DNA from: a virus
Taxonomy: Duplodnaviria; Heunggongvirae; Uroviricota; Caudoviricetes
Length of the DNA: 64,000 nucleotides
Virus record (IMG/VR): IMGVR_UViG_3300039159_000198
Strand: one strand, 5' to 3'
The position numbers and the translations under genes are program-made. Every line of letters starts with the position of its first letter. Positions within the stretch are counted from its first letter, which is position 1. Of the stretch, positions 14,708-61,437 are shown one piece after another. The notes beneath the pieces were generated by a model, which searched no databases, was not told the DNA's origin, and saw only the letters and a list, made by a program, of their open reading frames with translations.

Positions 14708-15733
14708 ATGGAAAGAAAGTTAGCCAGTATTAGAAGAATTAGTGATATTCAAAGTATTCCCGATGCGGATATGATTGAACTATCTATTGTGGATGGTTGG
14801 AAAGTTGTTATAGCAAAAAATGTTGGTCATAAAATTGGAGATTTGGTAGTGTATTGTGAGGTTGACTCATTCTTACCAATTCGTGATGAGTTTGAATTCT
14901 TACGTAAATCATCTTATAAGAAAATGGGTGACCAAGAAGGTTTTAGATTGAGGACCTCAAAACTAAGGGGGCAAATTTCTCAAGGACTTATCCTCCCAAT
15001 CAATGTGGTTCCAATTACACAGTTTGCGACTGCTCATGATTTACCTGAAGGTATGGACGTAACCGATATGTTGGATATAGTAAAATACGAACAACCAATT
15101 CCCGCAGAACTCGCTGGTAAAGTGAAAGGGATTTTCCCAAGTTTTATGCGTAAAACTGATGAGGAAAGAGTTCAAAATTTATCAGATGAATATGTGGAAA
15201 TGAAAAATCATACATATTATATAACCGAAAAGTTGGATGGTTCATCTGCGACATTCTACTACAATGATGGTATATTTGGTGTTTGTTCTCGTAATTTAGA
15301 ATTATTAGAAACGGAAGGAAATACTTTTTGGGAAGTTGCTCGTGAATTAGATTTGGAAAACAAATTGAGAAATTATGGAGTTAATTTATCGATTCAGGGG
15401 GAACTTATCGGAGAATCGGTGCAAGGAAACCCATATAAACTCAAAGGTCAAACAGTAAGATTTTTCAATATTTTTGATATTGATACTCAGGAATACTACG
15501 GATTATCTAATTTTCTAAGATTATTAGATGTGTTAGAGTTAAATTCTGTTCCAGTCCTTAGTAGGGATTTCAAATTACCGGAAACCATTGATGAATTATT
15601 AACTTATGCCGACAAGAAGTCAGAGTTAAACCCTAACTTTGATAGAGAGGGATTAGTGATTAGAAGTTTGGATAGAAAAATCTCATTCAAAGTGATATCA
15701 AATAAATTTTTACTTAAAAATGACAAAAATTGA
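14708..15733 (+). CDS. ATP-dependent RNA (polynucleotide) ligase, nucleotidyltransferase motif I KLDGS
   Basis: ITEKLDGSSATFYY (KxDG lysine-adenylylation motif) with downstream EGLVIR and GELIGES motifs typical of Rnl-type ligases. Confidence 0.6.
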   Translation: MERKLASIRRISDIQSIPDADMIELSIVDGWKVVIAKNVGHKIGDLVVYCEVDSFLPIRDEFEFLRKSSYKKMGDQEGFRLRTSKLRGQISQGLILPINVVPITQFATAHDLPEGMDVTDMLDIVKYEQPIPAELAGKVKGIFPSFMRKTDEERVQNLSDEYVEMKNHTYYITEKLDGSSATFYYNDGIFGVCSRNLELLETEGNTFWEVARELDLENKLRNYGVNLSIQGELIGESVQGNPYKLKGQTVRFFNIFDIDTQEYYGLSNFLRLLDVLELNSVPVLSRDFKLPETIDELLTYADKKSELNPNFDREGLVIRSLDRKISFKVISNKFLLKNDKN

Positions 15734-15983
15734 GAAACTAATTGTAAAAATGATTGAGGATAGTTACGGCTATCCTTATATGACTTACGATAAAAAAGAA
15801 CAAACTTGGACCAACAACTTTTTCTTATTCGATATTAAAACGGAGACGATTTATACATCGGATAATGTTAGGGTAGGCTTATCTAAAAAATTTGGGACGA
15901 AATATATTGAGAACAATTATTTTGATTTAATATCAAAATGGTTTAAAATGAATAATAAATATGATGTAAAACACGTTGTGTAG
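15720..15983 (+). CDS. hypothetical protein
   Basis: ORF. Confidence 0.4.
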   Translation: MTKIEKLIVKMIEDSYGYPYMTYDKKEQTWTNNFFLFDIKTETIYTSDNVRVGLSKKFGTKYIENNYFDLISKWFKMNNKYDVKHVV

Positions 15984-16004
15984 TATTTATACATTAAGGG
16001 GTAT

Positions 16005-17462
16005 TTGAATATGATTCAATTACAAAAGATTAGACAAAAAATTACTATGAGAGACAAAATTAAAAAAATAATAAAGGAAGAAGTTGGAGTTCCCGAAGGA
16101 ATCGTTGAAACTGCGGAATTGATTTATAATCAAGTAATTGATAAATTAAATTCTTTATCCACTACGGACGAAAATAACGATAAATTTATGTTTTATTTGA
16201 AAGGGGATTATAAAATATCCGATTATAAATTTAAAAAAATTGAGTTAACCCTCGAAATTGTTCGTACAGATGAGGTTAGTGAGGGAAAAATTCTTGGAAT
16301 GTCTTTTATGTTTGCAAGTAAATTGGATAATAAAAATGTAATATTACACCATATACCAACTAAGAATAAGATTGAATTATCCATAACTATGGCAATTCCT
16401 GAAGATGGTGATTTAAATGATGTAATTAAAGAGTTTGAATCCGAAAATACCCTAATAATAAGCTCATTAACTCATGAATTAATGCACTCGTATGAAAAAT
16501 TTAAAAGACCAACATATGGGGTAACAAGTCGAAGTGATTATGATGCATACACAAATCTTAGATTTGGAATTGAACCTATTGACGATTTATTACATAATCT
16601 ATATTTCATCCATTCAATTGAAAACGTTGTTAGACCAAGTGAGGTTGCCGCTGATTTAAAATCCGGTAATATTAAAAAGAGTGAGTTTTTAGAGTTTTTA
16701 AAGAGTAATCGAGTTTATCAAATGTTAAAAAAAATTAATGGTTTTACTTATGAAAGGTTTAAAAATGAATTATTAAACTATGATGATATTATAAGAGAAA
16801 GATTAACCGATAGTGGTATTGACAATATTCCGGAAAATAATGAAGAACTTGTTGAAATGGTATTAAGATTACTTAGGGTTACTTTAGTTAATGGTAAAGA
16901 GAGTTCGTTGAAACGAGATTTAACCACTGACTTTTTTGAGGAAATAACGGGGTTTTCAGGTAAAAAAGAACAAGTTTTTGATAACTACATTAAAAAAATC
17001 CAAAAATACGATAATAATGACAGTTTTTTTAAAAATGAAGAAAAAATGTTTAAATTTATTTCATATAATTTAATTAAAAAAATACATAAACTATATTCTA
17101 TTTTGGAAAAAAATAAAAAAACAAATGAATCCATAATTAATTGGGATTTATACCATAAAGTTAAAAAAACTCCAATTGTTATTGAAAATGAATCTCATTT
17201 TGACGATGATAATGAAGGTCGAAAAGTAAAACTGATTCAAAAGTACTTGGATAATGTTGTAACCCCTTCAAATGACCTTATTTGTGATGCAAAGGTTTTT
17301 AGGTTTAGTAATAGTGGAGATTATAATGTTAGAATTTGGGTTAATCAAAATAAAAATACCCACCGAGATGAATTTAACGATTTAGTTGATTCTACTTGGG
17401 AATACATATTTAATATGTTTGAAATACCTGTTTCGGTTCAAAAAATTAACTCTGAATGTTAA
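16005..17462 (+). CDS. hypothetical protein (485 aa) with HExxH motif (THELMHSYE)
   Basis: long ORF containing a candidate zinc-metallopeptidase motif. Confidence 0.5.
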   Translation: MNMIQLQKIRQKITMRDKIKKIIKEEVGVPEGIVETAELIYNQVIDKLNSLSTTDENNDKFMFYLKGDYKISDYKFKKIELTLEIVRTDEVSEGKILGMSFMFASKLDNKNVILHHIPTKNKIELSITMAIPEDGDLNDVIKEFESENTLIISSLTHELMHSYEKFKRPTYGVTSRSDYDAYTNLRFGIEPIDDLLHNLYFIHSIENVVRPSEVAADLKSGNIKKSEFLEFLKSNRVYQMLKKINGFTYERFKNELLNYDDIIRERLTDSGIDNIPENNEELVEMVLRLLRVTLVNGKESSLKRDLTTDFFEEITGFSGKKEQVFDNYIKKIQKYDNNDSFFKNEEKMFKFISYNLIKKIHKLYSILEKNKKTNESIINWDLYHKVKKTPIVIENESHFDDDNEGRKVKLIQKYLDNVVTPSNDLICDAKVFRFSNSGDYNVRIWVNQNKNTHRDEFNDLVDSTWEYIFNMFEIPVSVQKINSEC

Positions 17463-17469
17463 AAAATAT

Positions 17470-18990: not shown

Positions 18991-19431
18991 TTAAATTTTT
19001 ATTTCAAAACGATTTCTCATAACCTCAAGTTTATCTTCCGGAACTCCATGCTCATTAACTCCTCCGTGTCTGTTTTCAACAATTAATGAATAAACTTTAT
19101 ATCCGTGTTTTTCCGCCAAGTCAAAATAAGGTTTCATCTCCCATTCTTGTGTGAATGTGTTTGATACAACAATTCTTTTAGTTTGGATATCAGGGTTATC
19201 AAGAGCAACCATACTTTCTTCCACACCTTCTTGACACCAAGCGTGAGCATATTTTAATTGTGATGGGTCAAATTCATATTCCCCATTAATAGTTATAAAA
19301 TACATATCAGCTTCGATATGGATACCACCAATTGATTCTGCCAATGTTGATTTACCACATCCTGGTTACGGAACCCCCCTTAAAAGGAATAATTCCTTCA
19401 GGGGGGTTATATTTTTTGTTAATTTATTCAT
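18991..19431 (-). pseudogene. T4 Pnk-like polynucleotide 5'-kinase domain interrupted by an in-frame TAA inside the Walker A motif
   Basis: minus-strand translation reads MNKLTKNITPLKELFLLRGVP-stop-PGCGKSTLAESIGG...IVVSNTFTQEWEMKPYFDLAEKHGYKV. Removing 6 nt (TAACCA) would restore GVPGCGKST. Downstream motifs resemble the T4 Pnk kinase domain (IISDTN, ETFAKEYGWKV). Confidence 0.55.
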
Positions 19432-21189: not shown

Positions 21190-21192
21190 CAA

Positions 21193-40829: not shown

Positions 40830-40862
40830 ACTTTACGTGCAGAACCCTCGGATGTAGTAGTT

Positions 40863-49309: not shown

Positions 49310-49391
49310 GGTCAGATGCTAGAGTGGTTAAATAGGTTAGTCTGCAAAACTAATGACATCGTCATCGTCGGTTCGAATCCGACTCTGACCT
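49310..49391 (+). tRNA. tRNA with anticodon GCA (Cys) and an unusual 13-nt variable region
   Basis: acceptor GGTCAGA/TCTGACC, anticodon stem TTAGT/ACTAA with loop CTGCAAA, T-arm GTCGG-TTCGAAT-CCGAC, variable region TGACATCGTCATC. Confidence 0.5.
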
Positions 49392-49398
49392 CAAAAAA

Positions 49399-49470
49399 CG
49401 GGGTGTATTCTCGGAGTGAGAAGCCTGCCTTGGACGCAGGAAGCGGGAAGTGCAACTCTTCTCACCCCGA
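49399..49470 (+). tRNA. tRNA-Pro (anticodon TGG)
   Basis: C1-G72 acceptor CGGGGTG/CACCCCG, D-stem TTCT/AGAA, anticodon stem CCTGC/GCAGG with loop CTTGGAC, T-loop TGCAACT. Confidence 0.6.
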
Positions 49471-49540
49471 CTATTATTAGTCGTAATAAAAATATTTGGT
49501 TCAAATACGACTTTTACGACATATGAATATATTTATATAT

Positions 49541-50074: not shown

Positions 50075-50077
50075 CTC

Positions 50078-50165
50078 AGTTGGTATATTACCAAACTTTT
50101 AGTTTGGGAATCACACATTCTCGACGAAGGGTTCGGTGGAAACCCAAGAATAGATGATGAATCTA
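50078..50165 (+). ncRNA. tRNA-like remnant (canonical D-loop AGTTGGTA and a TTT-anticodon stem-loop CCAAA-CTTTTAG-TTTGG) lacking a foldable D-stem and T-arm
   Basis: CTTCGT...ACGAAG acceptor-like pairing but no canonical T-arm, so likely a degenerate tRNA-Lys. Confidence 0.3.
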
Positions 50166-50308
50166 TGTCCACCACATTCTCCCTTGAAACATTAAGGTGA
50201 TGTACTAAACTTTTAATTTAGGAAAACAGGGTCAGTACCTGTCAGGGGAACGAGGAGACTGTTATTAATTCATAGTCCTGATGGAGAAGGAATCATAGAA
50301 TTAAATTT

Positions 50309-50379
50309 ACCTCGTTGGCGTAATAGAAGCGTATTTGTCTTACATACAAATGGAGGTGGAGCGTAACCATCACGAGGTA
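50309..50379 (+). tRNA. tRNA-Val-like (anticodon TAC) with non-canonical T-loop AGCGTAA
   Basis: acceptor ACCTCGT/ACGAGGT, D-stem GCGT/GCGT (G-U pairs), anticodon stem TTTGT/ACAAA with loop CTTACAT, T-arm GGTGG-AGCGTAA-CCATC. Confidence 0.45.
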
Positions 50380-50384
50380 CAAAA

Positions 50385-50458
50385 GGGAACAACAGGCAAG
50401 GTGCCGAGCAGGTCTGTAAAACCTCACTGGGTTGGTTCGATTCCAACTGTTCCCACCA
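50385..50458 (+). tRNA. tRNA-Tyr-like (anticodon GTA) with genomically encoded CCA
   Basis: acceptor GGGAACA/TGTTCCC followed by ACCA, perfect T-arm GTTGG-TTCGATT-CCAAC, anticodon loop CTGTAAA on a 4-bp stem AGGT/ACCT, weak D-arm. Confidence 0.5.
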
Positions 50459-50507
50459 ATAATTAAAACACACTTGAACATTTTAATTAGTCGGTATATT
50501 TATAGGT

Positions 50508-50984
50508 ATGGGAGACATATACATAACAAAAGACCAATTGCTTAAAAAGATGAAAGTAACTGAACAATCTGAAAAGAAGGGTGAAGATAAATCACCTGAA
50601 CTAACCGAAACAGGTAACATAGGTAATTTAATTTCAACATTATTACATTCAAGAAACCAAGCACATGTATTTCATTGGCAAACAAAATCAAACTCATCTT
50701 TTGCCGAACATATGGCATTAGGGGGATATTATGATGGGATTGTTGAACTAATGGATGGACTTGTGGAAAGTTACCAAGGAAAACACGACATTATCACAGG
50801 TTATAACTCTTCAAAACTTGAGGATTATAAAGGTGTTGAACAATTAATTTCGTACTTTAAATCAATAGATTCTCAAATTGAGAAAGACCGAAAAAGTGTT
50901 AAAGAATCATACCTTCAAAATCAAATCGATACCATTCAGGAATTGATTTATTCTACGTTGTATAAATTAAGATTTTTAAAATAA
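50508..50984 (+). CDS. Dps/ferritin-like DNA-binding protein
   Basis: IGNLISTLLHSRNQAHVFHWQTKSNSSFAEHMALGGYYDGIVELMDGLVES matches the Dps helix A/B pattern (L..LL...H..HW...G..F...H......E..D.L.E). Confidence 0.5.
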   Translation: MGDIYITKDQLLKKMKVTEQSEKKGEDKSPELTETGNIGNLISTLLHSRNQAHVFHWQTKSNSSFAEHMALGGYYDGIVELMDGLVESYQGKHDIITGYNSSKLEDYKGVEQLISYFKSIDSQIEKDRKSVKESYLQNQIDTIQELIYSTLYKLRFLK

Positions 50985-51048
50985 GAGAATAGTGTTTTCA
51001 TACTAATCCCTCTGATTAAAAGTCGGGGGGATTTTTTTTATAAAAAAG

Positions 51049-51079
51049 TTTGGTGGAATGAAAAAAAGTATTATCTTTG
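51049..51079 (+). promoter_or_regulatory. Bacteroidetes-type promoter (TTTG / TATCTTTG) for the tRNA-Phe array
   Basis: TTTGgtggaatgaaaaaaagtatTATCTTTG, 32 nt upstream of tRNA-Phe. Confidence 0.55.
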
Positions 51080-51110
51080 TACTCACAAAAGAAAACAATT
51101 ATCATTATTT

Positions 51111-51182
51111 GGTACTGTAGCTCAGGGGTAGAGCACTTGGTTGAAGCCCAAGGTGTCGTTGGTTCGATTCCAACCAGTACCA
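51111..51182 (+). tRNA. tRNA-Phe (anticodon GAA)
   Basis: acceptor GGTACTG/CAGTACC, D-arm GCTC-AGGGGTA-GAGC, anticodon stem CTTGG/CCAAG with loop TTGAAGC, T-arm GTTGG-TTCGATT-CCAAC. Confidence 0.8.
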
Positions 51183-51258
51183 CGGAGTCCCGAAATAACG
51201 GGAAACCCCCACTCCCATATGGCAGCCGGTCCGTTAAGCCGGTGAAGTGGGGTAAAAT

Positions 51259-51332
51259 TGGTCTGAAGCTTATACAGTAAAGTACTCGACTGTTAATCGA
51301 GATTCTTGCAGGTGCAAATCCTGTCAGACCAG
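51259..51332 (+). tRNA. tRNA-Asn (anticodon GTT)
   Basis: U1-A72 acceptor TGGTCTG/CAGACCA, D-stem GCTT/AAGT, anticodon stem CTCGA/TCGAG with loop CTGTTAA, T-loop TGCAAAT. Confidence 0.65.
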
Positions 51333-51463
51333 CAAACAAGGAAACAACCCCTGAGTTGGTAAGGCCTTACCCGGACTCAAGAGAAGTAAAGTTACCAAAT
51401 GGGTGCGTAACGCCTTGGACTACAACGGGCTTCATAGAGGTATAAATAGTTGTAGTCAAAATT

Positions 51464-51535
51464 GCTTCTATAGTAGAATGGTAAGCACGCATTCCTGATA
51501 AGAATGAAAAGAAGGTTTGATTCCTTCTAGAAGTA
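51464..51535 (+). tRNA. tRNA-Ile (anticodon GAT)
   Basis: acceptor GCTTCTA/TAGAAGT, anticodon stem CATTC/GAATG with loop CTGATAA, T-arm GAAGG-TTTGATT-CCTTC, weak D-stem. Confidence 0.65.
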
Positions 51536-51548
51536 CAAAATAATATAT

Positions 51549-51622
51549 GGTGATTGTAGCTGAATTGGTAAAGCGTCTGATTGTGGTTCAGGAGATTGTG
51601 GGTTCGAGTCCCATCTTTCACA
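51549..51622 (+). tRNA. tRNA-His-like (anticodon GTG) with extra 5' G and imperfect acceptor
   Basis: anticodon stem TCTGA/TCAGG with loop TTGTGGT, T-arm GTGGG-TTCGAGT-CCCAT, acceptor G-GTGATTG/CTTTCAC with two U-U mismatches. Confidence 0.45.
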
Positions 51623-51847
51623 CGACATCTCCCAAAGGGAGAAGGTCCTGGTCAGAGATTTATTCTTGCAAAGGCAATACCTAAAGTTGCCCGTCTAATC
51701 TACGGGATTAGTTAAAAAGAGAGACAGTAAATCTGTAGTTAAAAGGTAGAGTGTATTAATAGACGAAAAAGGGTTTGGAGTAGTCTGACGTCACCCATCG
51801 CATTTAACCATAAACCCCGAAAGACCCGAAACGTCTCTCTTTATTTT

Positions 51848-51919
51848 ATTTCTATAGTTCAACGGATAGAACAATTGACTACGAATCAATAGATGGTGGT
51901 TCGAATCCATCTAGAAATA
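51848..51919 (+). tRNA. tRNA-Arg (anticodon ACG)
   Basis: acceptor ATTTCTA/TAGAAAT, D-arm GTTC-AACGGATA-GAAC, anticodon stem ATTGA/TCAAT with loop CTACGAA, T-arm GGTGG-TTCGAAT-CCATC. Confidence 0.7.
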
Positions 51920-51928
51920 CTAACATAC

Positions 51929-51990
51929 GGGTCGCAGACAAGGTGTCGGTCAGGTCTCTAAAACCTCGACGGCTTGTTCTAAAAATTGGA
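51929..51990 (+). pseudogene. half-tRNA pseudogene paralogous to the 50385 tRNA; anticodon loop CTCTAAA (CUA, amber-reading)
   Basis: GGGTCGCAGACAAGGTGTCGGTCAGGTCTCTAAAACCTCG aligns with GGGAACAACAGGCAAGGTGCCGAGCAGGTCTGTAAAACCTCA, but the 3' half (T-arm and acceptor) is absent and is overlapped by tRNA-Ser(GCT). Confidence 0.4.
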
Positions 51991-52074
51991 GAATAGATTA
52001 ATATTGGTTCGTGATGGCATCCTGCTAAGATGTTCCGGGTAAAACCGGTGAGGGTTCGATTCCCTCGTTCTCCG
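51988..52074 (+). tRNA. tRNA-Ser (anticodon GCT), class II
   Basis: acceptor GGAGAAT/GTTCTCC, anticodon stem GCATC/GATGT with loop CTGCTAA, long variable arm CCGG-gtaaaa-CCGG, T-arm GAGGG-TTCGATT-CCCTC. Confidence 0.7.
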
Positions 52075-52343
52075 CAAAAACCTGGTCCCCGCCCTCACAA
52101 TGTGTCTAAGGAACACAGGAGCTGAAAGTACAATCGGGGCGAATGTGGTGGGACACTTTAAAATCTTAGGTACAACGATAAGTTAGCGGGTTCTTATCAA
52201 CTGCCGAGGGGTCAAGGACCAAGGACGGCTCATATCCGACCTTAGAATGGAGCATTACCATTTCTCGGTACAAAATTTCTTAAATATTTCTTTGTCAATT
52301 CAAAACTTATCCATACCTTTGTCGAAATTAAAAACAAAGAAAT

Positions 52344-53186
52344 ATGAATAAGTTAAAAGTAATGTTTAAGGAGAATTGGAAATCAATATTGTTTTCTTAT
52401 TCTTTATTCACAATCAATTCAATATTAATGGTTATGTATCCCAAAGTATTGGGTAATTCCATCGACCACTTAATTGCCAAAGATTATTCTTACATTTGGT
52501 ATTTAATTTCTACATTCGTGGCAATCATGTTTTTTGGGTATATCAGTAGAATTTACGACACCAAGGTATTCTCCGGAATTTATAGACGATTTGCGTCAAA
52601 GGAAACACATAATCAACTTGAGAATGATGTCGATACGAGTAAGGTTAATGGTAGATTAACTCTGATGAACCGTATTGTTAGTTTCTTTGAGCACGATATG
52701 TTGGTGGTATTACAGACAATCATTGGAATCATTGGAGCCGTTTATTTCTTGGCGTTGGTGAGTTTACCAATAGTTGGGTTTTTAATCATCACAACAATTT
52801 TAATCTTGGGAGCCACATCATATTATTCACCAAGAATTGCTCAAATCACCAGTCTTTATAATGACTTGTCTGAAGAACAAACGGATATTGTCTCCACAAG
52901 AAATATATCGGGAATCAATAATTTATTAAAACGAGGACAGAAATTGTCTCTTAAATTATCATCAATTGACGCGAAGTTTTCAATTTGGATTCAGGCAATC
53001 GTGTATGGTAGTGTAACGTCTTTATTAACATATTATGTTATGTATAATAATGTTACGGTCGGGAGTGTATTTTCAACATATCGGTATATGTTTGATTTTT
53101 GTAATGCGCTTCTTGGTGTCCCAACTATCATCACATCATACATCAACATTAAAGATGTTATTAAAAGATTAGAAACCGAAAATTAA
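52344..53186 (+). CDS. polytopic membrane protein (resembles an ABC-exporter transmembrane domain without an ATPase)
   Basis: multiple hydrophobic helices and a promoter box TACCTTTG at ~52316. Confidence 0.4.
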   Translation: MNKLKVMFKENWKSILFSYSLFTINSILMVMYPKVLGNSIDHLIAKDYSYIWYLISTFVAIMFFGYISRIYDTKVFSGIYRRFASKETHNQLENDVDTSKVNGRLTLMNRIVSFFEHDMLVVLQTIIGIIGAVYFLALVSLPIVGFLIITTILILGATSYYSPRIAQITSLYNDLSEEQTDIVSTRNISGINNLLKRGQKLSLKLSSIDAKFSIWIQAIVYGSVTSLLTYYVMYNNVTVGSVFSTYRYMFDFCNALLGVPTIITSYINIKDVIKRLETEN

Positions 53187-53234
53187 TTTGGTGAATTAAA
53201 AAACATTTATTACCTTTGTAAAAAAATAAACGAT

Positions 53235-53561
53235 ATGATATTAGAGAAAGAATTATTGGACTTTACAAATTGGTTATACGATAACAATTGGAGATTAATC
53301 GGTGATGGTATGTGTTTGAATACCAAAACAAAAGATGTGTCTAAAATTAACGAATTGGTGGTCCGAAGTAAGACCTTGGAAAATTATGCCCCACAAAAAT
53401 TTCAAATTGGAGAAACGGTTAGAATCGTTGAGAATGGTGATGAGGTATCAATCGTGAATGTTAAATGGAACAAATACGATAACGAATATAAATATTGGTA
53501 CGAGGACGAAGAAGGTAATGATTGGTATGGTTATCACGATGAGTTTGAATCAATATCATGA
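53235..53561 (+). CDS. hypothetical protein
   Basis: ORF with a promoter box TACCTTTG at ~53210. Confidence 0.45.
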   Translation: MILEKELLDFTNWLYDNNWRLIGDGMCLNTKTKDVSKINELVVRSKTLENYAPQKFQIGETVRIVENGDEVSIVNVKWNKYDNEYKYWYEDEEGNDWYGYHDEFESIS

Positions 53562-53666
53562 TTAAAAAAATTATCTTTATTTTATCCCTGATATGGGATA
53601 AAATTAGAATGAAACGGAAAAGCAAGTGGGATTTATAAAATAAATAAAATAAATAAAATAAAATAT

Positions 53667-54938
53667 ATGGAACAACATAAAGACATTTTCTATATTATCT
53701 CAAAAGAAAACGATAGACAAGTTAGAGGCATTGAACTAATCGCTTCGGAGAATTACACGAGTGATGAGGTTATGAGAGCGGCGGGTTCGTGTTTAACAAA
53801 CAAGTATGCCGAAGGATATCCGGGTAAAAGATATTATGGTGGTTGTGAGGTTGTTGATGTAATTGAACAAATAGCGATTGATAATGCTAAAAAATTATTT
53901 GGAGCGGAATACGCAAATGTTCAACCTCATTCCGGGTCACAGGCAAATACTGCAGTATTTCATGCTTGTTTAAACGTGGGTGATAAAATATTGGGTTTTG
54001 ATTTATCTCACGGAGGACATTTAACACACGGTTCACCGGTAAATTTTTCCGGTAAATTATACACATCAAGTTTTTATGGAGTGGAGGAGAATGGGGAATT
54101 TGACTATGATAAAATTCAAGAAATAGCAACCAAAGAACAACCAAAATTAATCATTGCTGGTGCGTCTGCTTATTGTCGTGATATGGATTTTAAACGTTTT
54201 AGAGAAATTGCAGATTCAGTTGGAGCGATATTATTGGCCGACATCTCACACCCTTCTGGTTTAATTGTGTCAGGACTGATGAATAATCCAGTTCCACACT
54301 GTCATATAGTTACAACAACCACACATAAAACATTACGTGGACCAAGAGGTGGTTTAATTATTATGGGTGAGGATTTTCCAAATCCAATGGGGATAAAAAC
54401 ACCTAAAGGAGAACTGAAAATGATGTCAAATTTATTAGACCTAGCAGTATTCCCGGGCAATCAAGGTGGTCCATTAATGCACATAATTGCTGCCAAAGCA
54501 ATCGCCTTTGAACAATGTTTAAGTAATGATTTTTACGAATATTCGGTACAAGTTCAAAAAAACGCTAAAGCAATTGCTGAATCATTTACTAAAAGAGGTT
54601 ATAATTTAATCTCTAATGGAACTGATAATCATATGATTCTAATTGACCTTAGAAATAAAGGAATTACAGGTAAAGAAGCGGAAGAAGTGTTGGGTAAGGC
54701 GGACATTACAGTAAATAAAAATATGGTACCCTTTGATGATAAATCACCTTTTATCACATCCGGTATTAGAATTGGAACACCTGCCGTTACCACAAGAGGA
54801 TTAGTGGAAGAAGATATGGAAAGTATTGTTTCTTTTATTGATACTCTATTAGTTAGACGTAATGATGACTTTATTATTGATAGTGTAAAAAGAGGTGTAA
54901 ATGAATGGATGAGTACAAAACCAATATTTAACAAATAA
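53667..54938 (+). CDS. glyA: serine hydroxymethyltransferase
   Basis: 423 aa with the PLP-lysine region [17 protein letters not shown] and [12 protein letters not shown], both diagnostic SHMT blocks. Confidence 0.9.
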
Positions 54939-54954
54939 AAAAAAAACAAATGAA

Positions 54955-55179
54955 ATGGTTGAGGGGTGGTATAAGGGTTTCTGTAGGAACAATTATGTCG
55001 CTTATTGGGATGGAGAAAAGTTCCAACACCTCCGGTATAAATTCGGATTCATGTTGGACACAATAGAACATTTTGAGGATGTTAAAGAGAAACGATTAGA
55101 TGGGTTTGTTCCGGTTGAGAGAATTGAAAGATTGGCTCCGGATGAGCAATGGAAAATTAAAGATGAAATAGGATATTAA
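54955..55179 (+). CDS. hypothetical protein
   Basis: ORF. Confidence 0.4.
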   Translation: MVEGWYKGFCRNNYVAYWDGEKFQHLRYKFGFMLDTIEHFEDVKEKRLDGFVPVERIERLAPDEQWKIKDEIGY

Positions 55180-55180
55180 G

Positions 55181-55780
55181 ATGATAGATAATTTAGAAGT
55201 AATAAAACCATTATTGAATTTGTCCGAAAAGGGGGATTTTTATTCTTTAATGATTTTAAAGAGAAAGAAAGACCAACCGGAAGGTGAGAGAGATAATCAT
55301 CAGTCGGTTAGAACAATCAAAACATATTGTATTGATAGTATTGACCATCTTGAAAAAAGATACAATGAAATCAAACAAGTATGTGAGATGTTTAAAGCAA
55401 GAGCATACATCCACGTACAGAAACAAAACCATAGTGATGTTTCATTGGATATGTTGGCATTACTTGCTGAGAGAATCAAAAATGGTGTGAAAAACCAAAA
55501 AGGTTTATTTGATTCAGTTGTGGGTCAAATTAAAACACACGAGAAAAGATGGATTATTGATGTTGATACAAAGGACAAACAATTCCTGAGAGACATTACA
55601 ATGGATTTGATGGAGATTCAACCGGTGGGGAATAAAGTTGAAAAAGTAATCCCAACCAAAAACGGATTTCATTTGATTACTTGTAAGTTTAATGTGATGG
55701 AGTTTAAGGAAAAGTATCCGGACGTAGAAATCCATAAAAAAAATCCGACTTTGTTGTTTTTACCGAATAGTTTAGAATAA
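55181..55780 (+). CDS. hypothetical protein
   Basis: ORF. Confidence 0.5.
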   Translation: MIDNLEVIKPLLNLSEKGDFYSLMILKRKKDQPEGERDNHQSVRTIKTYCIDSIDHLEKRYNEIKQVCEMFKARAYIHVQKQNHSDVSLDMLALLAERIKNGVKNQKGLFDSVVGQIKTHEKRWIIDVDTKDKQFLRDITMDLMEIQPVGNKVEKVIPTKNGFHLITCKFNVMEFKEKYPDVEIHKKNPTLLFLPNSLE

Positions 55781-55854
55781 AATTAAACCCCCTCTACGTA
55801 ACGAAAGCGCTACGACACGTACTATCTGGCAGGTCAGGTGGGGGGTTTTTAAAC

Positions 55855-55937
55855 AGTCAGGTGGCGGAATTGGTATATGCATAACTATAAGGTTGAAAGC
55901 GATTGTTATTTTACAGGTTCGAATCCTGTCCTGACTA
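55855..55937 (+). tRNA. tRNA-like gene X1 (Leu/Tyr-type D-arm GGCGGAATTGGTA, canonical T-arm ACAGG-TTCGAAT-CCTGT) with non-canonical anticodon region
   Basis: acceptor AGTCAGG/CCTGACT. The only 5-bp stem in the middle (ATAAC/GTTAT) encloses a 19-nt loop. It is a paralog of X2 and X3. Confidence 0.4.
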
Positions 55938-55949
55938 CAAGTATTAAAT

Positions 55950-56264
55950 ATGAATATAGATTTATTTAGACATTGGATTCCTGATTTAAGACAAACAAAG
56001 AACAAGAATGCTTATGTTGCAAAGCAATGTCCTTTCTGTCCAAGAACACCACATTCAAAATCATTTAGAATTAATCTTAAACTCAAAGTTTGGAAATGTT
56101 ATCAATGCGGTAGAGGTGGTAAAAATTTTAATAAATTTGTTCATTATTTAAAAGGTAGGGACTACAGAAGAAATAGTATTAAATACTTGAAGAGAATAGG
56201 TCGTCAACCAATGAGTATTCCTATTGTGGTTCAATACGGATGTGAAAGTTCATTACCGTTTTGA
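55950..56264 (+). CDS. zinc-ribbon hypothetical protein
   Basis: CPFCPR...CYQCGRGG. Confidence 0.4.
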   Translation: MNIDLFRHWIPDLRQTKNKNAYVAKQCPFCPRTPHSKSFRINLKLKVWKCYQCGRGGKNFNKFVHYLKGRDYRRNSIKYLKRIGRQPMSIPIVVQYGCESSLPF

Positions 56265-56307
56265 CGTACAACCCGTGAGATAGAAAGACGAATAAGCGGG
56301 TTAAATT

Positions 56308-56397
56308 GGTCAGGTAGTTTAATGGTAGAACAGCTAGATGACTCAGATACTGATTCTGATAATATTGCTTATACAGGTTCGAATCCTGTTCTGACTA
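56308..56397 (+). tRNA. tRNA-like gene X2 (class-II length, same T-arm as X1 and X3), anticodon unresolved
   Basis: acceptor GGTCAGG/TCTGACT (two G-U pairs), D-arm GTT-taatggtaga-AAC, candidate anticodon stem TCAGA/TCTGA with loop TACTGAT (no U33). Confidence 0.4.
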
Positions 56398-56743
56398 CAA
56401 ATAAAGTTCAAAATAAATAAAGATTGGGTTCATTTTATGATGATTATGAGCCCGATTTTACGTATATTTGAGCCATAAAATAAAATTAACTATGAAAAAA
56501 CAATTTGATATGCTTTGAGGTCTACTCAACAATAGACTGAAAAGTTATGAGTATAAATGTAAACAGAGCCAAGTTCAATAAAGAGACTTGTTCAAAAGAT
56601 TACAAAAGAATTTTATTAGACGAATTATACCCGATGTATTGGGATGAGGGTCTAAATTTCATACACGGTCATTCGGCTTCAAAATACAGAAGTCACAAAA
56701 CGTGGAAATACAATAGAAAAACACAATATAAAGAATAGGAATA

Positions 56744-57247
56744 ATGAGTGTAAAACACAGTAAATGTTTAGTATTAGATTCAAATTTTATACCAAGAAGT
56801 ATAATTTCAACTGAGAGAGCGTTTGTAATTAATTACAAGGGTAATGCGGTTGTCTTGGCTGAGCATCCTGAACTTTTTTTACATCCTGTTTATAAATTTA
56901 AAAAACCATCAATTATTCGGGTTTTTAAGTATGTTAAAACACAAATCCATAAGGTTCCGTTAAATCGTGAAAACGTATATAGAAGAGATGGTTTTTGTTG
57001 TGTTTATTGTGGTGATGAAAATCGTAAAACATTGACGTTAGACCACGTAATACCTCAATCAAAGGGTGGTAGAGACTCTTGGGATAATTTGGTTACTGCG
57101 TGTAAAAAGTGTAATAGTGAAAAGTCAAATTTAACTTTGGAGGAATATGGTAAAGAAATACCTCAACCAAGGAGACCTCACTATTTAATGTTAATGAAAC
57201 AGATTACACACATCCCAAAAGAATGGGAAGATTATTTATTCTTTTAA
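56744..57247 (+). CDS. HNH endonuclease located between tRNA-like genes
   Basis: CVYCGDENRKTLTLDHVIPQSKGGRDSWDNLVTACKKCNSEK, a classic HNH motif. Confidence 0.75.
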   Translation: MSVKHSKCLVLDSNFIPRSIISTERAFVINYKGNAVVLAEHPELFLHPVYKFKKPSIIRVFKYVKTQIHKVPLNRENVYRRDGFCCVYCGDENRKTLTLDHVIPQSKGGRDSWDNLVTACKKCNSEKSNLTLEEYGKEIPQPRRPHYLMLMKQITHIPKEWEDYLFF

Positions 57248-57254
57248 AGAATAA

Positions 57255-57403
57255 GGTCAGGTGGCGGAATGGTAGACGATAAAGTGGGTTACCCTTAGAG
57301 TAAAACCTATCATATATAAAATAAAGGCAGTTTACTGCTTATGATAGTCATTGGTAAATTTGAAAATGTTACTCAATTACAGGTTCGAATCCTGTCCTGA
57401 CCA
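57255..57403 (+). tRNA. tRNA-like gene X3 with ~70-nt internal insertion (intron-like or expanded arm)
   Basis: 5' GGTCAGGTGGCGGAATGGTAGACG and 3' ACAGGTTCGAATCCTGTCCTGACCA are typical tRNA ends. The interior contains an 8-bp hairpin CTATCATA/TATGATAG. Confidence 0.35.
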
Positions 57404-57620
57404 CAAAATTTAAGAATTTGATAGTTCCCGGTGATAATCGCCGTTATCTAAGACAATGATAAATAAAAACAGACATATAACTTGCGTCAGTGGTAAATGA
57501 ATGTGAGGTTCGGAATAGTCAACCAAACCAAGAGACCGCCGAGGGTAAACACAGGGATGACCCCTGTCCACCCCCCAAGATGAAATATCGGAAAATCATT
57601 CTGTCTGTTTTTTTTACATG

Positions 57621-57693
57621 GATATTGAATCACAATTGGACGTGCGACCGGTGTAAGGCCGGGAGGATATAGGTTCGAACCCTATCAATATCC
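57621..57693 (+). tRNA. tRNA-like gene, candidate anticodon TAA (Leu) on a CCGG/CCGG stem
   Basis: acceptor GATATTG/CAATATC, T-arm ATAGG-TTCGAAC-CCTAT, D-stem CAC/GTG, anticodon loop TGTAAGG with G at position 33. Confidence 0.4.
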
Positions 57694-57734
57694 CAAAAAT
57701 TAAACTTTTTTTTTAATCACGTATATTTATTAAC

Positions 57735-58028
57735 GTGAAAAAATTTATAATCACAGAAGAAGAAAAAGATGAAATATTGTCAAAATATAATCTAATAAAA
57801 GAACCGGACAATAACTTTTTGAAATTTAGATACTCAGGAAATGAGTTCCCAACGGATGAAATGAGGGAATGGTTTCGTAATAAGGTTGAGTATATGGATG
57901 AATGGGATGAATTAGATAGAGATTTACAGATGGACATTGTTAGAAATAATTTTTTTGATGTTTTCCACGATGAACTATCTGATTTAAGTTATATGGAAAT
58001 GTTAGATGTTTTTAATAAATGTTATTAA
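57735..58028 (+). CDS. hypothetical protein, ITE-leader family (MKKFIITEEEKDEIL)
   Basis: leader motif. It is a tandem paralog of 58030..58413. Confidence 0.5.
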   Translation: MKKFIITEEEKDEILSKYNLIKEPDNNFLKFRYSGNEFPTDEMREWFRNKVEYMDEWDELDRDLQMDIVRNNFFDVFHDELSDLSYMEMLDVFNKCY

Positions 58029-58029
58029 T

Positions 58030-58413
58030 ATGAAAAAATTTATAATCACCGAAGAAGAAAAAGACAACATATTAGGTCAATATAAAGAAGTAAAAGATAC
58101 TCCAATAGATAGACGAATGTTAGATATTGATTTAACACCAATGACTATGGCAAAAATTAAATCCAAAGGATTAACACCATATTATATTGAAGGGACTAAT
58201 TTAATTGAATTATCCAGTCATATAAAAAATTCTAAAGTAACTTTTGGACTACACAGACCAACTGAAGTATTTTTATTCTCTCAGGATGATTATGAGAAAA
58301 TTAAAAAAATGTCTGATAACATTAATGAGATGATTGAAGTTAAAAAGAAACAAATTGAGTTGTATAAACAATACATTCCGGCGGTTGCAATAGAACTTAC
58401 AAATAAAAAATAA
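58030..58413 (+). CDS. hypothetical protein, ITE-leader family (MKKFIITEEEKDNIL)
   Basis: leader motif. The start was moved to the second ATG. Confidence 0.5.
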   Translation: MKKFIITEEEKDNILGQYKEVKDTPIDRRMLDIDLTPMTMAKIKSKGLTPYYIEGTNLIELSSHIKNSKVTFGLHRPTEVFLFSQDDYEKIKKMSDNINEMIEVKKKQIELYKQYIPAVAIELTNKK

Positions 58414-58631
58414 TTTTTTTTCAATAATACTTGACACTTTTATAAAAAGGTGTATATTTATTAGAAATTACAATAACACAGAAAATGAAAACTTTAAATA
58501 CAATACTATTATTAACAGGAGCGGAGAGTAGAAATACAACTCGGTCGGAGATGGTATGATGTATTGTTAAGTAAATAATAATAACTGATTAAGTCCATCT
58601 CCAAAAGAGATGGATTTTTTTTTACATTATA

Positions 58632-58662
58632 TTTGGAGAAATGAAAAAAAGTGTTATCTTTG
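58632..58662 (+). promoter_or_regulatory. Bacteroidetes-type promoter (TTTG / TATCTTTG)
   Basis: TTTGgagaaatgaaaaaaagtgtTATCTTTG, upstream of the small ORF 58677..58793. Confidence 0.5.
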
Positions 58663-58676
58663 TCGAAAGAAATAAT

Positions 58677-58793
58677 AACGATGAAAGAAAACGAAACAGA
58701 AGGTACACCGTACCAAGAATTAGAAATGGTATATTCACCAATTTTAGGAGTCACATATGAATTAGTTGATGTGATTGAAGAAGAAGAAAAAGA
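58677..58793 (+). CDS. small acidic protein (38 aa) not in the ORF track
   Basis: MKENETEGTPYQELEMVYSPILGVTYELVDVIEEEEKE with its own promoter box. Confidence 0.3.
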
Positions 58794-58802
58794 ATAAAAA
58801 TA

Positions 58803-58833
58803 TTTGGTAGAACGAAATAAAGTATTATCTTTG
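58803..58833 (+). promoter_or_regulatory. Bacteroidetes-type promoter for the tRNA-Glu/Ala/Asp array
   Basis: TTTGgtagaacgaaataaagtatTATCTTTG. Confidence 0.5.
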
Positions 58834-58882
58834 TACCATCAAAAAGAAAAACAAGTTATTTGATATATTGGTAATATAAATT

Positions 58883-58953
58883 GGCCCGGTCGTCTAAAAG
58901 CAGGACATAGTACTTTCAATTCTAAAACCGGAGAGCGTTACTCCGTCGGGCTA
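58883..58953 (+). tRNA. tRNA-Glu (anticodon TTC) with non-canonical T-loop AGCGTTA
   Basis: acceptor GGCCCGG/TCGGGCT (terminal G-U pairs), D-arm GTCT-aaaagca-GGAC, anticodon loop CTTTCAA, T-arm CGGAG-AGCGTTA-CTCCG. Confidence 0.5.
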
Positions 58954-59095
58954 CTAACATCGATGTTACGAAATTTAATGTAAACTTAACTGTAGAAAGA
59001 ATATAAGTCTCATAAGGTATCTTGAGCAAAGCTTGATAAGGGTGTTAATCTAGGCGGTGTACAAGGGTTTGGTCTTGTATATTAAATTTCAATTG

Positions 59096-59167
59096 GGGGG
59101 TATCGTATAAAAGCAATTACAGTGGTTTTGCAAATCACAGAACACGGAGCGTTACCGTGTACCTCCA
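59096..59167 (+). tRNA. tRNA-Ala (anticodon TGC) with G3-U70 identity pair and T-loop AGCGTTA
   Basis: acceptor GGGGGTA/TACCTCC (G3-T70 wobble), anticodon stem GTGGT/ATCAC with loop TTTGCAA, T-arm CACGG-AGCGTTA-CCGTG. Confidence 0.65.
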
Positions 59168-59177
59168 CAAAAATAAA

Positions 59178-59209
59178 TTTGGTTATTAAAAATATAATAA
59201 CTATCTTTG
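59178..59209 (+). promoter_or_regulatory. Bacteroidetes-type promoter for tRNA-Asp
   Basis: TTTGgttattaaaaatataataacTATCTTTG, 17 nt upstream of the tRNA. Confidence 0.5.
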
Positions 59210-59225
59210 TTAAAGAATAAAAAAA

Positions 59226-59296
59226 AGTCTATTGGTGTAATAGTAACATATATCTCTGTCACAGATAAGTCGACGTAGCGTAAACGTCATAGACTG
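59226..59296 (+). tRNA. tRNA-Asp (anticodon GTC) with T-loop AGCGTAA
   Basis: acceptor AGTCTAT/ATAGACT, D-arm GTGT-aatagta-ACAT, anticodon stem TATCT/AGATA with loop CTGTCAC, T-arm GACGT-AGCGTAA-ACGTC. Confidence 0.65.
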
Positions 59297-59312
59297 CCAA
59301 AAAAAAAAACAT

Positions 59313-59383
59313 CGCGGTAAGGTGTAAAGGTTGCATAGGACTCTCATAAGGTCTATGGGGTGGTTCGAATCCATAATCCGCAA
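59313..59383 (+). tRNA. tRNA with CAT anticodon (Met or lysidine-Ile), C1xA72 and imperfect acceptor
   Basis: D-arm GTGT-aaaggtt-GCAT, anticodon stem GGACT/GGTCT with loop CTCATAA, T-loop TTCGAAT, acceptor CGCGGTA/ATCCGCA with mismatches at pairs 6 and 7. Confidence 0.4.
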
Positions 59384-59645
59384 AACAATCGAAGTTAATC
59401 CACCTCCACGGGGTGATTGTTGGAAACAGGTAACGCTGGCTGAGAGATTAACAAACGTTCATTAAAAAAATTTTTGTATTACTATGTGTTGTGACCCTAA
59501 CTATGGTGTCTTGTATGAAAAAAACTAAAACTGAAGGAACGACTGAAGTAACAGATACTACTAAGGTAGTTATTGATTCATCAAATGTTGACTCGGTTAA
59601 AGTTGATTCAGTTAAAGTTATTAAATAACTAGCCATTACTGAATA

Positions 59646-60280: not shown

Positions 60281-60333
60281 AGTTTTAATTTATACTAATA
60301 AATACTTCGGTATTGAATAAAAAAAAATCCCGA

Positions 60334-60663
60334 CTAATTGTCGAGATTTTTACTGTATGTTAATCTTTTTATTGGTGTCTCAACCTCGTCAATTATGATT
60401 GGTTCCTCTATTGGGTCTACAAATGGTTCTACGATTGAAGGTTTACTTCTTATTAAACCATATGTTATCCATCTATACCAAATTCTTTCATGAAGGTAAT
60501 ATTGTATGGGTTTATAAACCAATTCAGCAATACCGAACATTGCACCAATTTCAACTTTTCCGGTTATCAACCATATAATTAAAAAACCTATTAAGGTACT
60601 GATTATTCGATAACTCACTGTTTTTGCTAAATGTCTTTTAGCGGATACCTTAATTGGACTCAT
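60334..60663 (-). CDS. small membrane protein
   Basis: two hydrophobic helices. Confidence 0.4.
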   Translation of the reverse strand: MSPIKVSAKRHLAKTVSYRIISTLIGFLIIWLITGKVEIGAMFGIAELVYKPIQYYLHERIWYRWITYGLIRSKPSIVEPFVDPIEEPIIIDEVETPIKRLTYSKNLDN

Positions 60664-60843
60664 TTTTAAAATTAATTTTATTCAATTCTTTTATTGTTAT
60701 GATATTATTTTTCCAGTCTTTCCAAACTTCAAATTCTAATAAATCCTCTAAAGTTTTTTCATGAACTAATACAAACCCTTCCGGAGCATTTCCTTCAAGT
60801 TTTCTAACCTGTCCTTCTTGTTCCAAAATTCTCTTAATGTCTA

Positions 60844-61437
60844 TCATTTTAAATAGTTTAATAATTGTTCTTTAACTCCTGATTGTTTGATTCCTTCGTT
60901 TTCTCTTGGTGTGTGAACGAAGTTAGATAAACCCCACTTTTGTTCTCTACCTTGAGTGTCTTTTTCACCTAGTTCCAAATCGTCGATACAAGCCCAATGA
61001 GTGATATCGGGATGGTCGGTTAGATATTGTTTAACTTCGATACATCTTTGTTGTTCATACATAGTTCTTCTAAACCATTCAAATTCATCAGGTTTAACAC
61101 AACCGATGTATCGTTTGGTAAATGCGATTGGTTTTTTTATAATTCCTTGTGATAGGTAATACTCCCCAATTTCTTCTAAAGTAGCGAATAACCTCCAGTC
61201 AGAGGAAACAACGATTTCGGCCCCGGTTTCTTCCAATACCTGATTTAATACCTTGATGGACTTTTTATCAAAATCATCAAATCTAACATCCACCGGTGAT
61301 GTTCTATCACTGGTCGCATCAGGATTAAGTTTCTTATACTTTGCCCATTTTTTGGAACGACCACCCCAATTATTAAAAAGGGCTATAACTCCGTCATTAT
61401 CCAAAAACAATATTGATTTTTTTTCGTCTTTTCCCAT
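60844..61437 (-). CDS. HAD-superfamily phosphatase, candidate polynucleotide 3'-phosphatase (T4 Pnk phosphatase-domain-like)
   Basis: SILFLDNDGVIA (HAD motif I DxDG[TV]), EIVVSSDW (motif II) and ACIDDLE (motif IV). A minus-strand promoter box lies at ~61465. Confidence 0.4.
   Translation of the reverse strand: MGKDEKKSILFLDNDGVIALFNNWGGRSKKWAKYKKLNPDATSDRTSPVDVRFDDFDKKSIKVLNQVLEETGAEIVVSSDWRLFATLEEIGEYYLSQGIIKKPIAFTKRYIGCVKPDEFEWFRRTMYEQQRCIEVKQYLTDHPDITHWACIDDLELGEKDTQGREQKWGLSNFVHTPRENEGIKQSGVKEQLLNYLK

Follow-up and report, generated by a model that had tools for sequence, protein, structure and literature searches.

Can an enzyme still be made from a gene whose catalytic motif is cut by a stop codon? 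The question is raised twice by IMG/VR virus record IMGVR_UViG_3300039159_000198 (Caudoviricetes), of which we analyzed a stretch of 64,000 nucleotides (nt), hereafter called the window. Between positions 14,708 and 61,437 it encodes six proteins of the kinds that heal and seal broken RNA ends. Two of the genes, one for a Pnk-type kinase and the other for a small calcineurin-type metallophosphoesterase, carry interruptions of six and five nucleotides that begin with TAA. Comparison with related phage sequences suggests that these are most likely conserved recoding cassettes, and not damage. We consider it probable that a scattered repair toolkit is combined here with programmed stop-hops, of +6 in the kinase and +5 in the phosphoesterase, installed as immunity cassettes of homing endonucleases. 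With slightly less assurance, we also favor the broader proposal that hairpin-driven +6 and +5 hops occur naturally in phages, where homing-endonuclease elements would have placed them in the DNA of catalytic motifs, so that the enzyme survives and the target is destroyed.

The kinase gene lies on the minus strand and consists of two segments in the same frame (19431-19369 and 19362-18991, including the stop codon), separated by the six nucleotides TAA CCA at 19368-19363. Its open reading frame (ORF), 18991-19431, matches phrog_2071 (7.5e-31) and, after removal of the 6-nt interruption, AAA_33 (4e-10), in line with the interrupted Pnk-type kinase domain of the first-pass annotation; the interruption contains an in-frame TAA. 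As encoded, the translation reads MNKLTKNITPLKELFLLRGVP*PGCGKST, with the TAA (19368-19366) falling in the Walker A loop; the DNA around it is AGG GGG GTT CCG TAA CCA GGA TGT GGT AAA TCA ACA, that is, RGVP-stop-P-GCGKST. Omission of TAACCA yields a perfect loop, GVPGCGKST, to be compared with RGLPGSGKST in relatives: the contiguous Walker A pattern G-x4-G-K-[ST] is broken as encoded and is restored solely by skipping six nucleotides. The putative hop site (19363-19371) would thus comprise the take-off codon CCG (19371-19369), the stop codon and the landing codon CCA (19365-19363), decoding being resumed at GGA 19362. Immediately before the take-off codon, and abutting it, is a hairpin at 19372-19408, ACCCCCCTGAAGGAAT..TTCCTT..AAGGGGGGT, with a predicted minimum free energy (MFE) of -22.9 kcal/mol. 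Against the PDB, the best full-length matches of the kinase-family profile are T4 Pnk (8e-4), the kinase domain of Clostridium thermocellum Pnkp (CthPnkp, 4GP7; 0.012) and PSTK, all with marginal E-values; the assignment draws further support from the conserved proximity of RNA ligase genes. An acidic residue follows the P-loop (E-A-D): this aspartate, D40, is invariant in 21 family members and present in the window.

The phosphoesterase, of the phrog_547 or aq_1665 type, is also encoded on the minus strand, by two segments in different frames (40876-40811 and 40805-40203) with a 5-nt gap, TAACT, at 40810-40806. All six repair genes proposed by the first-pass annotation are found where it placed them and in the families it proposed, but here it missed the interruption, and its choice of start must be corrected from 40829 to ATG 40876. 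The ORF as called (40203-40829; Metallophos, and phrog_547 at 8.5e-40) lacks the aspartate of motif I. The first 22 codons are in another frame and read MLKIKTTTSEGSARKVWITSDT-stop, ending at TAA 40810-40808 inside motif I. When TAACT is omitted this upstream part joins HYGHKNI and motif I, SDTHYGH, is restored. The rejoined protein aligns end to end with four homologues from phages of Flavobacterium, Cellulophaga, Pseudomonas and Aeromonas; S20, D21, H23 and H26 are invariant. The remaining metal-binding motifs (GD, GNHD, H and GHVH) are present, and motif I (SDT|HYGH) is complete only with the 5-nt skip. At this hop site (40806-40813; ACT TAA CT CAC) the predicted take-off codon is ACT 40813-40811, the stop is TAA 40810-40808, and the landing triplet ACT 40808-40806 overlaps the stop, so that decoding would resume at CAC 40805. 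Again a hairpin abuts the take-off codon (40814-40853, ATCCGAGG...CCTCGGAT; MFE -23.1 kcal/mol).

Two simple explanations can be set aside. An assembly error is ruled out by the presence of the same inserts in independent assemblies of other samples: contigs near-identical to the window occur in three metagenome assemblies (L001 at 99.8%, L005 at 97-98%, and one JGI contig), and L001 and L005 carry both inserts. An alternative genetic code is ruled out by normal stop usage and ORF coverage, the window being densely coding at about 30% GC under the standard code, with TAA as the main gene end; moreover, a change of code leaves the 5-nt case unexplained. We also rejected as evidence the mere geometry of a codon, a stop and the same codon, of which about 80 instances arise by chance in this AT-rich window. 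As the geometry is this common, only its combination with motif restoration, hairpin and conservation is informative. A motif-blind scan found this combination in the window at 19368 and 40810, and no others.

Conservation extends far beyond the near-identical contigs. L082, whose kinase and phosphoesterase share 61% and 50% protein identity with those of the window, has both interruptions but writes them with other nucleotides (CCG TAG CTA GGA and ACG TAA CA CAT). We scanned IMG/VR with a kinase pattern that left free the stop position (TRR) and the next triplet, and with a phosphoesterase pattern that left free the take-off codon and the two bases after TAA. The first returned 75 stretches, 73 of which are kinases with long ORFs on both sides of the stop; these span several families, including one T4-type Pnk (AAA_33 plus HAD_PNKP, 2.4e-50) and one kinase-HD fusion. 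All 73 carry TAA, TAG or TGA and none carries TGG. The free triplet that follows is Y-Y-N, and hence able to pair with a Pro anticodon NGG via G-C or G.U pairs, in 48 of 49 clusters at 90% identity and 12 of 13 at 50% (p 6e-7). Among the 15 real interrupted phosphoesterases, the take-off codon is invariably ACN; at +5, 13 have ACN and two have ATT. At both sites in the window, as at all 73 + 15 related ones, the take-off codon is directly followed by the stop.

As a negative control, the kinase pattern was run on 596 Gb of bacterial and archaeal genomes. It gave 73 hits, all of them due to chance: 25 carry TGG, the frames are random, none shows kinase ORFs, and about 19% have Y-Y after a stop. 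This is evidence that the device is specific to phages. In some 170 related loci, only kinases and phosphoesterases carry a cassette, and none was found in the neighboring genes. The two interruptions are mostly independent of each other: 27 loci combine an interrupted kinase with a contiguous phosphoesterase, and in that tally the window's lineage, L096 and L127 alone have an interruption in each of the two genes. In cultured phages, tblastn searches with the kinase, the phosphoesterase and a hop-type Pnk gave only contiguous genes among the matches listed, with no interrupted example.

An obvious alternative is that both interrupted genes are dead, mere scars of endonuclease-associated insertions, and that RNA ends are healed, if at all, by the intact HAD_SAK_2 and MPPED2-like enzymes described below. 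This would explain why a stop codon sits inside each catalytic motif and why endonuclease genes are linked to the interrupted alleles. Also, the closest relative, L005, has an Asn at the kinase's invariant Asp, a hint of decay in that sub-lineage. However, pairwise comparison of interrupted kinases that share 75-97% protein identity gives, for the ORF after the stop, a median ratio of nonsynonymous to synonymous divergence (dN/dS) of 0.12, with dS ranging from 0.6 to more than 2, that is, into saturation. None of the 73 + 15 interrupted examples has acquired a further stop or frameshift, and nothing would make a pseudogene preserve a hairpin with covarying arms, or a landing triplet suited to the take-off tRNA. 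Such purifying selection downstream of the stop speaks so strongly against pseudogenes that we hold this explanation to be very improbable.

The hairpin provides further evidence. In interrupted alleles the N terminus is extended by about 20 codons, which encode a poorly conserved peptide (upstream dN/dS of about 0.43). We folded, sequence by sequence, the 60 nt ending at the take-off codon. Median MFE is -23.0 kcal/mol (z -5.9) in interrupted kinases versus -3.8 (z +0.7) in intact ones (p 2e-15), and -20.4 kcal/mol (z -4.4) in interrupted phosphoesterases versus -5.2 (z 0.07) in intact ones (U=0, p 2e-8). The 3' end of the hairpin abuts the take-off codon or includes its first base. Its 3' arm encodes the conserved residues R-G-[VL] or S-D, and its 5' arm lies in the N-terminal extension and changes in step. 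Arms pair far better with their own partner than with one swapped from another site (-19.7 versus -10.6 in kinases, p 2e-19; -18.1 versus -9.4 in phosphoesterases, p 1e-6). The hairpin is therefore strong, specific to interrupted alleles and covarying, and we infer that it has a stimulatory role.

Functional genes could also be expressed by some other route: readthrough in the kinase, a -1 or +2 frameshift in the phosphoesterase, loss of the 5-6 nt from the RNA, or translation of the downstream part on its own. Hopping is far rarer than either readthrough or frameshifting. Besides, C usually comes after the stop, which in E. coli makes for weak termination, and the hairpin's 3' arm (AGGGGG or AGAGGG, a few nucleotides ahead of the shift codon) looks like the stimulator of the +1 frameshift in prfB, which is Shine-Dalgarno-like. 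Yet the two extra residues left by readthrough or frameshifting would break the spacing of G-x4-G-K-[ST] and of D-x-H. The occurrence of all three stop codons among close relatives of the kinase argues against a specific suppressor. In the phosphoesterase, a Thr tRNA finds no pairing at the -1 position, whereas the +5 triplet pairs in all 15 cases. As for the remaining options, no start codon is conserved after the stop, and we know of no mechanism that would splice out 5-6 nt. We consider these routes, taken together, to be improbable.

The mechanism that we propose is a stop-hop. The cassette would consist of an N-terminal extension with a hairpin ending at a Pro (CCN) or Thr (ACN) take-off codon, followed by the stop and by a triplet, 6 or 5 nt downstream, at which re-pairing can occur. 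A ribosome stalled with the stop codon in its A site would let the peptidyl-tRNA release the take-off codon, and the mRNA would slip along by 6 or 5 nt, perhaps because the hairpin refolds behind the ribosome. The same tRNA would then re-pair at the landing triplet and decoding would resume, giving products with the canonical GVPGCGKST Walker A loop and SDTHYGH motif I. By analogy with known bypassing, the cassette is most likely the immunity half of a homing-endonuclease element: the insert would break the target and the hop would keep the enzyme.

This last point is supported by the genes found beside the interrupted alleles. An endonuclease gene adjoins 43 of the 73 interrupted kinases (divergent in 36, on the same strand in seven) and none of the 70 intact ones. 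In 42 of these loci the gene encodes three NUMOD3 motifs plus a TnsA-like PD-(D/E)xK nuclease, and in the other a GIY-YIG enzyme; its near end is some 105-130 nt upstream of the hop site. LAGLIDADG or DUF723 / Vsr-like genes come before interrupted phosphoesterases. In the window, we tentatively identify as a candidate homing endonuclease the 311-residue product of ORF 40863-41798 (-), directly upstream of the interrupted phosphoesterase. It has CxxC fingers, NUMOD3-like repeats (E 0.019, below the cut-off) and possibly an HNH-like motif, and a homologue occupies the same place in L168. In many pairs, synonymous divergence in the 5' cassette is much below that of the rest of the gene, which fits either horizontal spread or structural constraint. 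In T4 gene 60, the endonuclease MobA is accompanied by a bypass cassette that includes an N-terminal extension and protects the target, and some phages keep the cassette after loss of the endonuclease. The window's kinase looks like another such case.

Next to the candidate endonuclease, the 169-residue ORF 41862-42371 (-) matches the first 160 of the 309 positions of phrog_624 ('DNA binding protein', 5.5e-60) and ends in GAT TAA GAT, with the frame open into ORF 40863-41798. It could be a gene split by the endonuclease insertion, or this could be due to chance. Further endonuclease-like genes lie at 4201-4968 (-; endonuclease VII-like), 7915-8580 (+; weakly HNH-like), 27655-28350 (-; I-HmuI-type NUMOD) and 56744-57247 (+; HNH), and the region is evidently rich in selfish elements.

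Several observations weigh against stop-hopping cassettes spread by homing endonucleases. A recognizable endonuclease gene is absent beside the window's own kinase, and the ORF upstream of the phosphoesterase is weakly endonuclease-like; to this the Asn of L005 has to be added. The landing triplet is often near-cognate (CTN for Pro and ATT for Thr, with G.U at the middle position), and in one of the 49 kinase clusters it is ACA. A context of weak termination could account for the C after the stop as well as re-pairing could. Both scan patterns derive from the window's two genes, and the restriction to two gene families holds for the loci scanned. Lastly, synthetic stop-hops are described as low-level and inefficient, and the output of enzyme could be small.

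What, then, would the rescued enzymes do? The first-pass annotation had proposed a modular or non-canonical strategy of tRNA repair, with parts split into separate genes. The window does encode a genuine RNA end-healing and sealing repertoire, as judged from its protein families, and the functional side of that proposal is supported by the conserved neighborhood of these genes in other phages. Its unusual modularity was overstated: the genes are indeed separate and scattered, but a modular layout is common in phages, and it is the dispersal over 47 kb that is specific to this lineage. Homologues occur in more than 600 phage records, and two cultured phages, Pyxpy02 (Pseudomonas) and phiA009 (Aeromonas), have phosphoesterase, RNA ligase and kinase next to one another. 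We surveyed 6 kb around the related kinase in the 80 best loci of IMG/VR, which form 44 clusters at 90% identity of the kinase. A phrog_547-type phosphoesterase was found in 52 loci, Rnl1 in 33, HAD_SAK in 12 and an MPPED2-like gene in nine; an RNA ligase of some type lies near the kinase in 27 of the 44 clusters, and L087 has five types of part within 7 kb. The compact phosphoesterase-kinase-Rnl1 cluster of these relatives supports a functional link between the three, joined less often by Rnl5, HAD_SAK and MPPED2-like proteins. That they repair nuclease-cut tRNA is a reasonable extrapolation from the T4 and C. thermocellum paradigms.

The four intact genes fit this repertoire. The Rnl1-type ligase (37308-38387, -) matches PF09511 (RNA_lig_T4_1; 8e-22, 78.6 bits versus a cut-off of 28.3) and phrog_562 (2e-62 over residues 13-351). 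It has K89-M-D-G (motif I, KMDGSL), E141 (III), E211-G (IV), K224-x-K226 (V) and a C-terminal region. Aligned to T4 Rnl1 (2C5U, 5TT6), its catalytic motifs are in register with KEDG, FEF, EG and KIK. The second ligase (14708-15733, +) is of the Rnl5 or NgrRnl-like type, with an N-terminal OB and a nucleotidyltransferase domain (PF21189, the PHA02142 OB domain, 5e-36; PF09414, RNA_ligase, 3e-25; phrog_968, 3e-84). Its match to the Naegleria ligase 5COT is full-length (2.4e-72, residues 3-338 of 341, KLDGSS aligned). Profile searches thus place both among RNA ligases, and not in DNA-ligase or capping families. The 197-residue HAD-type phosphatase (60844-61437, -) passes the threshold of HAD_SAK_2 (PF18143; 1.9e-17, 64.4 bits versus 27.5), with motif I LDNDGV at residues 12-17 and no PDB relative detectable by sequence; this family, of the 'Swiss Army Knife' RNA repair proteins, was defined for RNA repair, a function that is itself a prediction. 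Finally, the first-pass annotation was right in counting two calcineurin-type phosphoesterases, the second being MPPED2-like (26696-27418, -; Metallophos 5e-11). It matches MPPED2 itself (3RL4; 1.7e-42, residues 12-230), has the motifs SDTH, GD, GNHD and GHIH, and may act on the 2',3'-cyclic ends of RNA, but could equally be a cyclic-nucleotide phosphodiesterase with free cyclic nucleotides as its substrate.

In a further alternative, the six parts do not form one tRNA-repair system but have separate roles, and the tRNA genes would simply match the AT-rich codon usage of the phage. Rnl1 would serve in tail-fiber attachment, as T4 gp63 does, and indeed phrog_562 is annotated as RNA ligase and tail-fiber attachment catalyst. 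Rnl5 would act on duplex nicks, which are known to be sealed by NgrRnl-type ligases. The MPPED2-like protein, from a family of cyclic-nucleotide phosphodiesterases, would act against cyclic-nucleotide defense signals, and phosphoesterase and kinase would act on DNA ends or nucleotides. A phrog_547 homologue is found among DNA-replication genes in Cellulophaga phages, and as much as 47 kb separates the genes in the window. Separate roles fit poorly with a kinase profile that is closest, at marginal E-values, to polynucleotide kinases, with the repeated adjacency of phosphoesterase, kinase and RNA ligase in distant phages, with the HAD_SAK and MPPED2-like genes that join the same cluster in some loci, such as L087, and with the position of the phosphoesterase directly after a tRNA cluster in phage immuto. 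We regard separate roles as unlikely, though far from negligible. The nick-sealing ligases and the replication-gene neighbors of phrog_547 do count against a single toolkit, which we still prefer.

Flavobacterium phage immuto (L006, NC_055915) has the closest cultured homologue of the interrupted phosphoesterase (49% identity). There the gene is contiguous, the tRNA cluster before it has four genes, and after another 1.8 kb there is a second metallophosphoesterase, a pairing reminiscent of that in the window. Another observation concerns L088, L107 and their relatives in IMG/VR, whose hop-interrupted kinases, of about 310 residues (IIMRGVP|GSGKST), carry C-terminal H-x-T-like motifs (HHMTI, AHITI). 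This suggests that the C-terminal part is a candidate 2H cyclic phosphodiesterase (CPD), in a Trl1-like kinase-CPD healing protein; Pfam matched AAA_33 only.

The tRNA genes of the window form an array at 49040-59384 (+), interspersed with ORFs. We count 17 tRNA or tRNA-like genes with ARAGORN and Rfam, fewer than the more than 20 announced earlier: ARAGORN by default gives 11, Rfam 14 at 29 bits or more, to which ARAGORN adds two Ser, and one is weak. Their types are Ser, Cys, Pro(UGG), Lys(UUU), Val, one with an 8-nt anticodon loop, Phe, Asn, Ile, His, Arg, Ser, two odd long-arm tRNAs, Glu, Asp and a weak Met. The tRNA-Pro(UGG), at 49399-49471 (+), is cognate to both the take-off CCG and the landing CCA of the kinase, and may play a role in the hop. 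The gene with the 8-nt loop (50385-50458, +; ARAGORN anticodon 'aaaa') has an Rfam score of 32.7 bits and an encoded CCA; tRNAs with an expanded anticodon loop are reported to enhance hopping in E. coli. The odd long-arm genes (55855-55938 and 56316-56398, +) share their 3' halves and have irregular anticodon regions. A tRNA-Met with a 999-nt intron that ARAGORN placed at 56308-57404, around the HNH ORF 56744-57247, is probably spurious, a complete tRNA being predicted at 56316-56398. At the end of the array, a weak match to an HDV-like ribozyme (RF02682; 59384-59452, +; 28.9 bits versus a gathering score of 44) starts at the base where the weak tRNA-Met-like gene (59312-59384) ends. HDV-like ribozymes have been reported beside phage tRNAs.

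The recognizable genes of the window are those typically found in the accessory region of a large phage; the phage itself is uncultured. Apart from the genes already discussed, the window encodes a cyclophilin, a non-specific nuclease, ClpP, a serine hydroxymethyltransferase, a Band-7 protein, lysozymes and several homing-endonuclease-like genes. A search of the phage collection found no deposited phage that is closely related in DNA. The host may plausibly belong to the Bacteroidota, since among cultured phages those of Flavobacterium and Cellulophaga have the closest homologues of one phosphoesterase. Two other features deserve mention. The stretch at about 5000-7650 has a GC content of 35-37% versus 30%, few ORFs and many strong GC-rich hairpins, with repeated stems of the GGCGGGG / CCCCGCC type; no Rfam match above noise was found there, and no tRNA in the stretch from 4.8 to 9 kb. 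At 61836-62183 (-), about 0.4 kb from the HAD gene, there is a weak match to a HigB/RelE-like toxin, below threshold (E 0.0067).

The repair toolkit is a member of a widespread phage module, and the chief interest rests in the two recoding cassettes, which we take to be a variant of bypassing. Translational bypassing has so far been documented in few natural cases, namely T4 gene 60 with its homologues and the inserts of yeast mitochondria. Our analysis would add some 90 natural examples in about 50 sequence clusters, with rules clear enough to make the mechanism directly testable with simple reporters: a Pro or Thr take-off codon, any of the three stops, a re-pairing triplet and an abutting hairpin. 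It would also generalize the logic of gene 60 and MobA, in which a homing endonuclease is coupled to a bypass insert that protects the target. Gene callers score such genes as truncated or as pseudogenes, and this is how the window's kinase and phosphoesterase are called in public assemblies. The efficiency of the hop may moreover tie the output of RNA-healing enzymes to the state of translation termination during infection. More generally, the phosphoesterase, kinase and RNA ligase module is widespread and little studied, and its genes appear to be a battleground for selfish elements.

As a repair system, the set resembles T4 Pnk and Rnl1 in having an Rnl1-family ligase with all the nucleotidyl-transfer motifs, a Pnk-like kinase and a phosphatase of HAD type. 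It differs in that kinase and phosphatase are separate, the genes are dispersed, the HAD protein is HAD_SAK_2 and not HAD_PNKP, and the conserved partner of the kinase is a metallophosphoesterase. In this last respect it is closer to C. thermocellum Pnkp, where healing is also supplied by a P-loop kinase, whose domain (4GP7) is matched by the kinase-family profile, together with a binuclear metallophosphoesterase. Here, however, these are separate proteins, with a phosphoesterase of the small aq_1665 / phrog_547 kind; sealing would fall to Rnl1 or Rnl5, and no Hen1 was found. The Rnl5 of Naegleria gruberi is similar over its full length, N-terminal OB domain included, but the copy in the window is phage-encoded. 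With HAD_SAK proteins, the window's HAD shares the family and, in related phages, the company of kinases, ligases and phosphoesterases; unlike them, it stands alone and is not a domain of a large multi-domain protein.

The recoding cassettes, in turn, have two precedents. Synthetic stop-hops in E. coli, with +5 and +6 events, were described decades ago (Weiss, Dunn, Atkins and Gesteland 1987; O'Connor et al. 1989). As in the window, matching codons lie on both sides of a stop and nine nucleotides specify one amino acid, but those constructs were artificial and low-level, whereas the sites reported here are natural, conserved, under selection and equipped with a hairpin. A 2016 review of recoding listed no known case of natural in-frame stop hopping, although shorter counterparts of bypassing had long been presumed, and in the literature we searched we found no later report of a natural stop-hop or of such a device. 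The natural precedent is T4 gene 60. There too, the stop directly follows the take-off codon, the landing codon is cognate to the same peptidyl-tRNA, and some genomes hold the cassette without the endonuclease. In contrast, gene 60 skips 50 nt (20 in one Aeromonas clade) and not 5-6, its host gene encodes a topoisomerase, and its endonuclease is MobA. In the phages studied here, the hop would be either in-frame (+6) or frame-shifting (+5), the hosts are the kinase and phosphoesterase of an RNA-repair module, with the insert exactly in the catalytic motif, and the endonucleases come from several families (NUMOD3 with TnsA-like, GIY-YIG, LAGLIDADG and DUF723-type).

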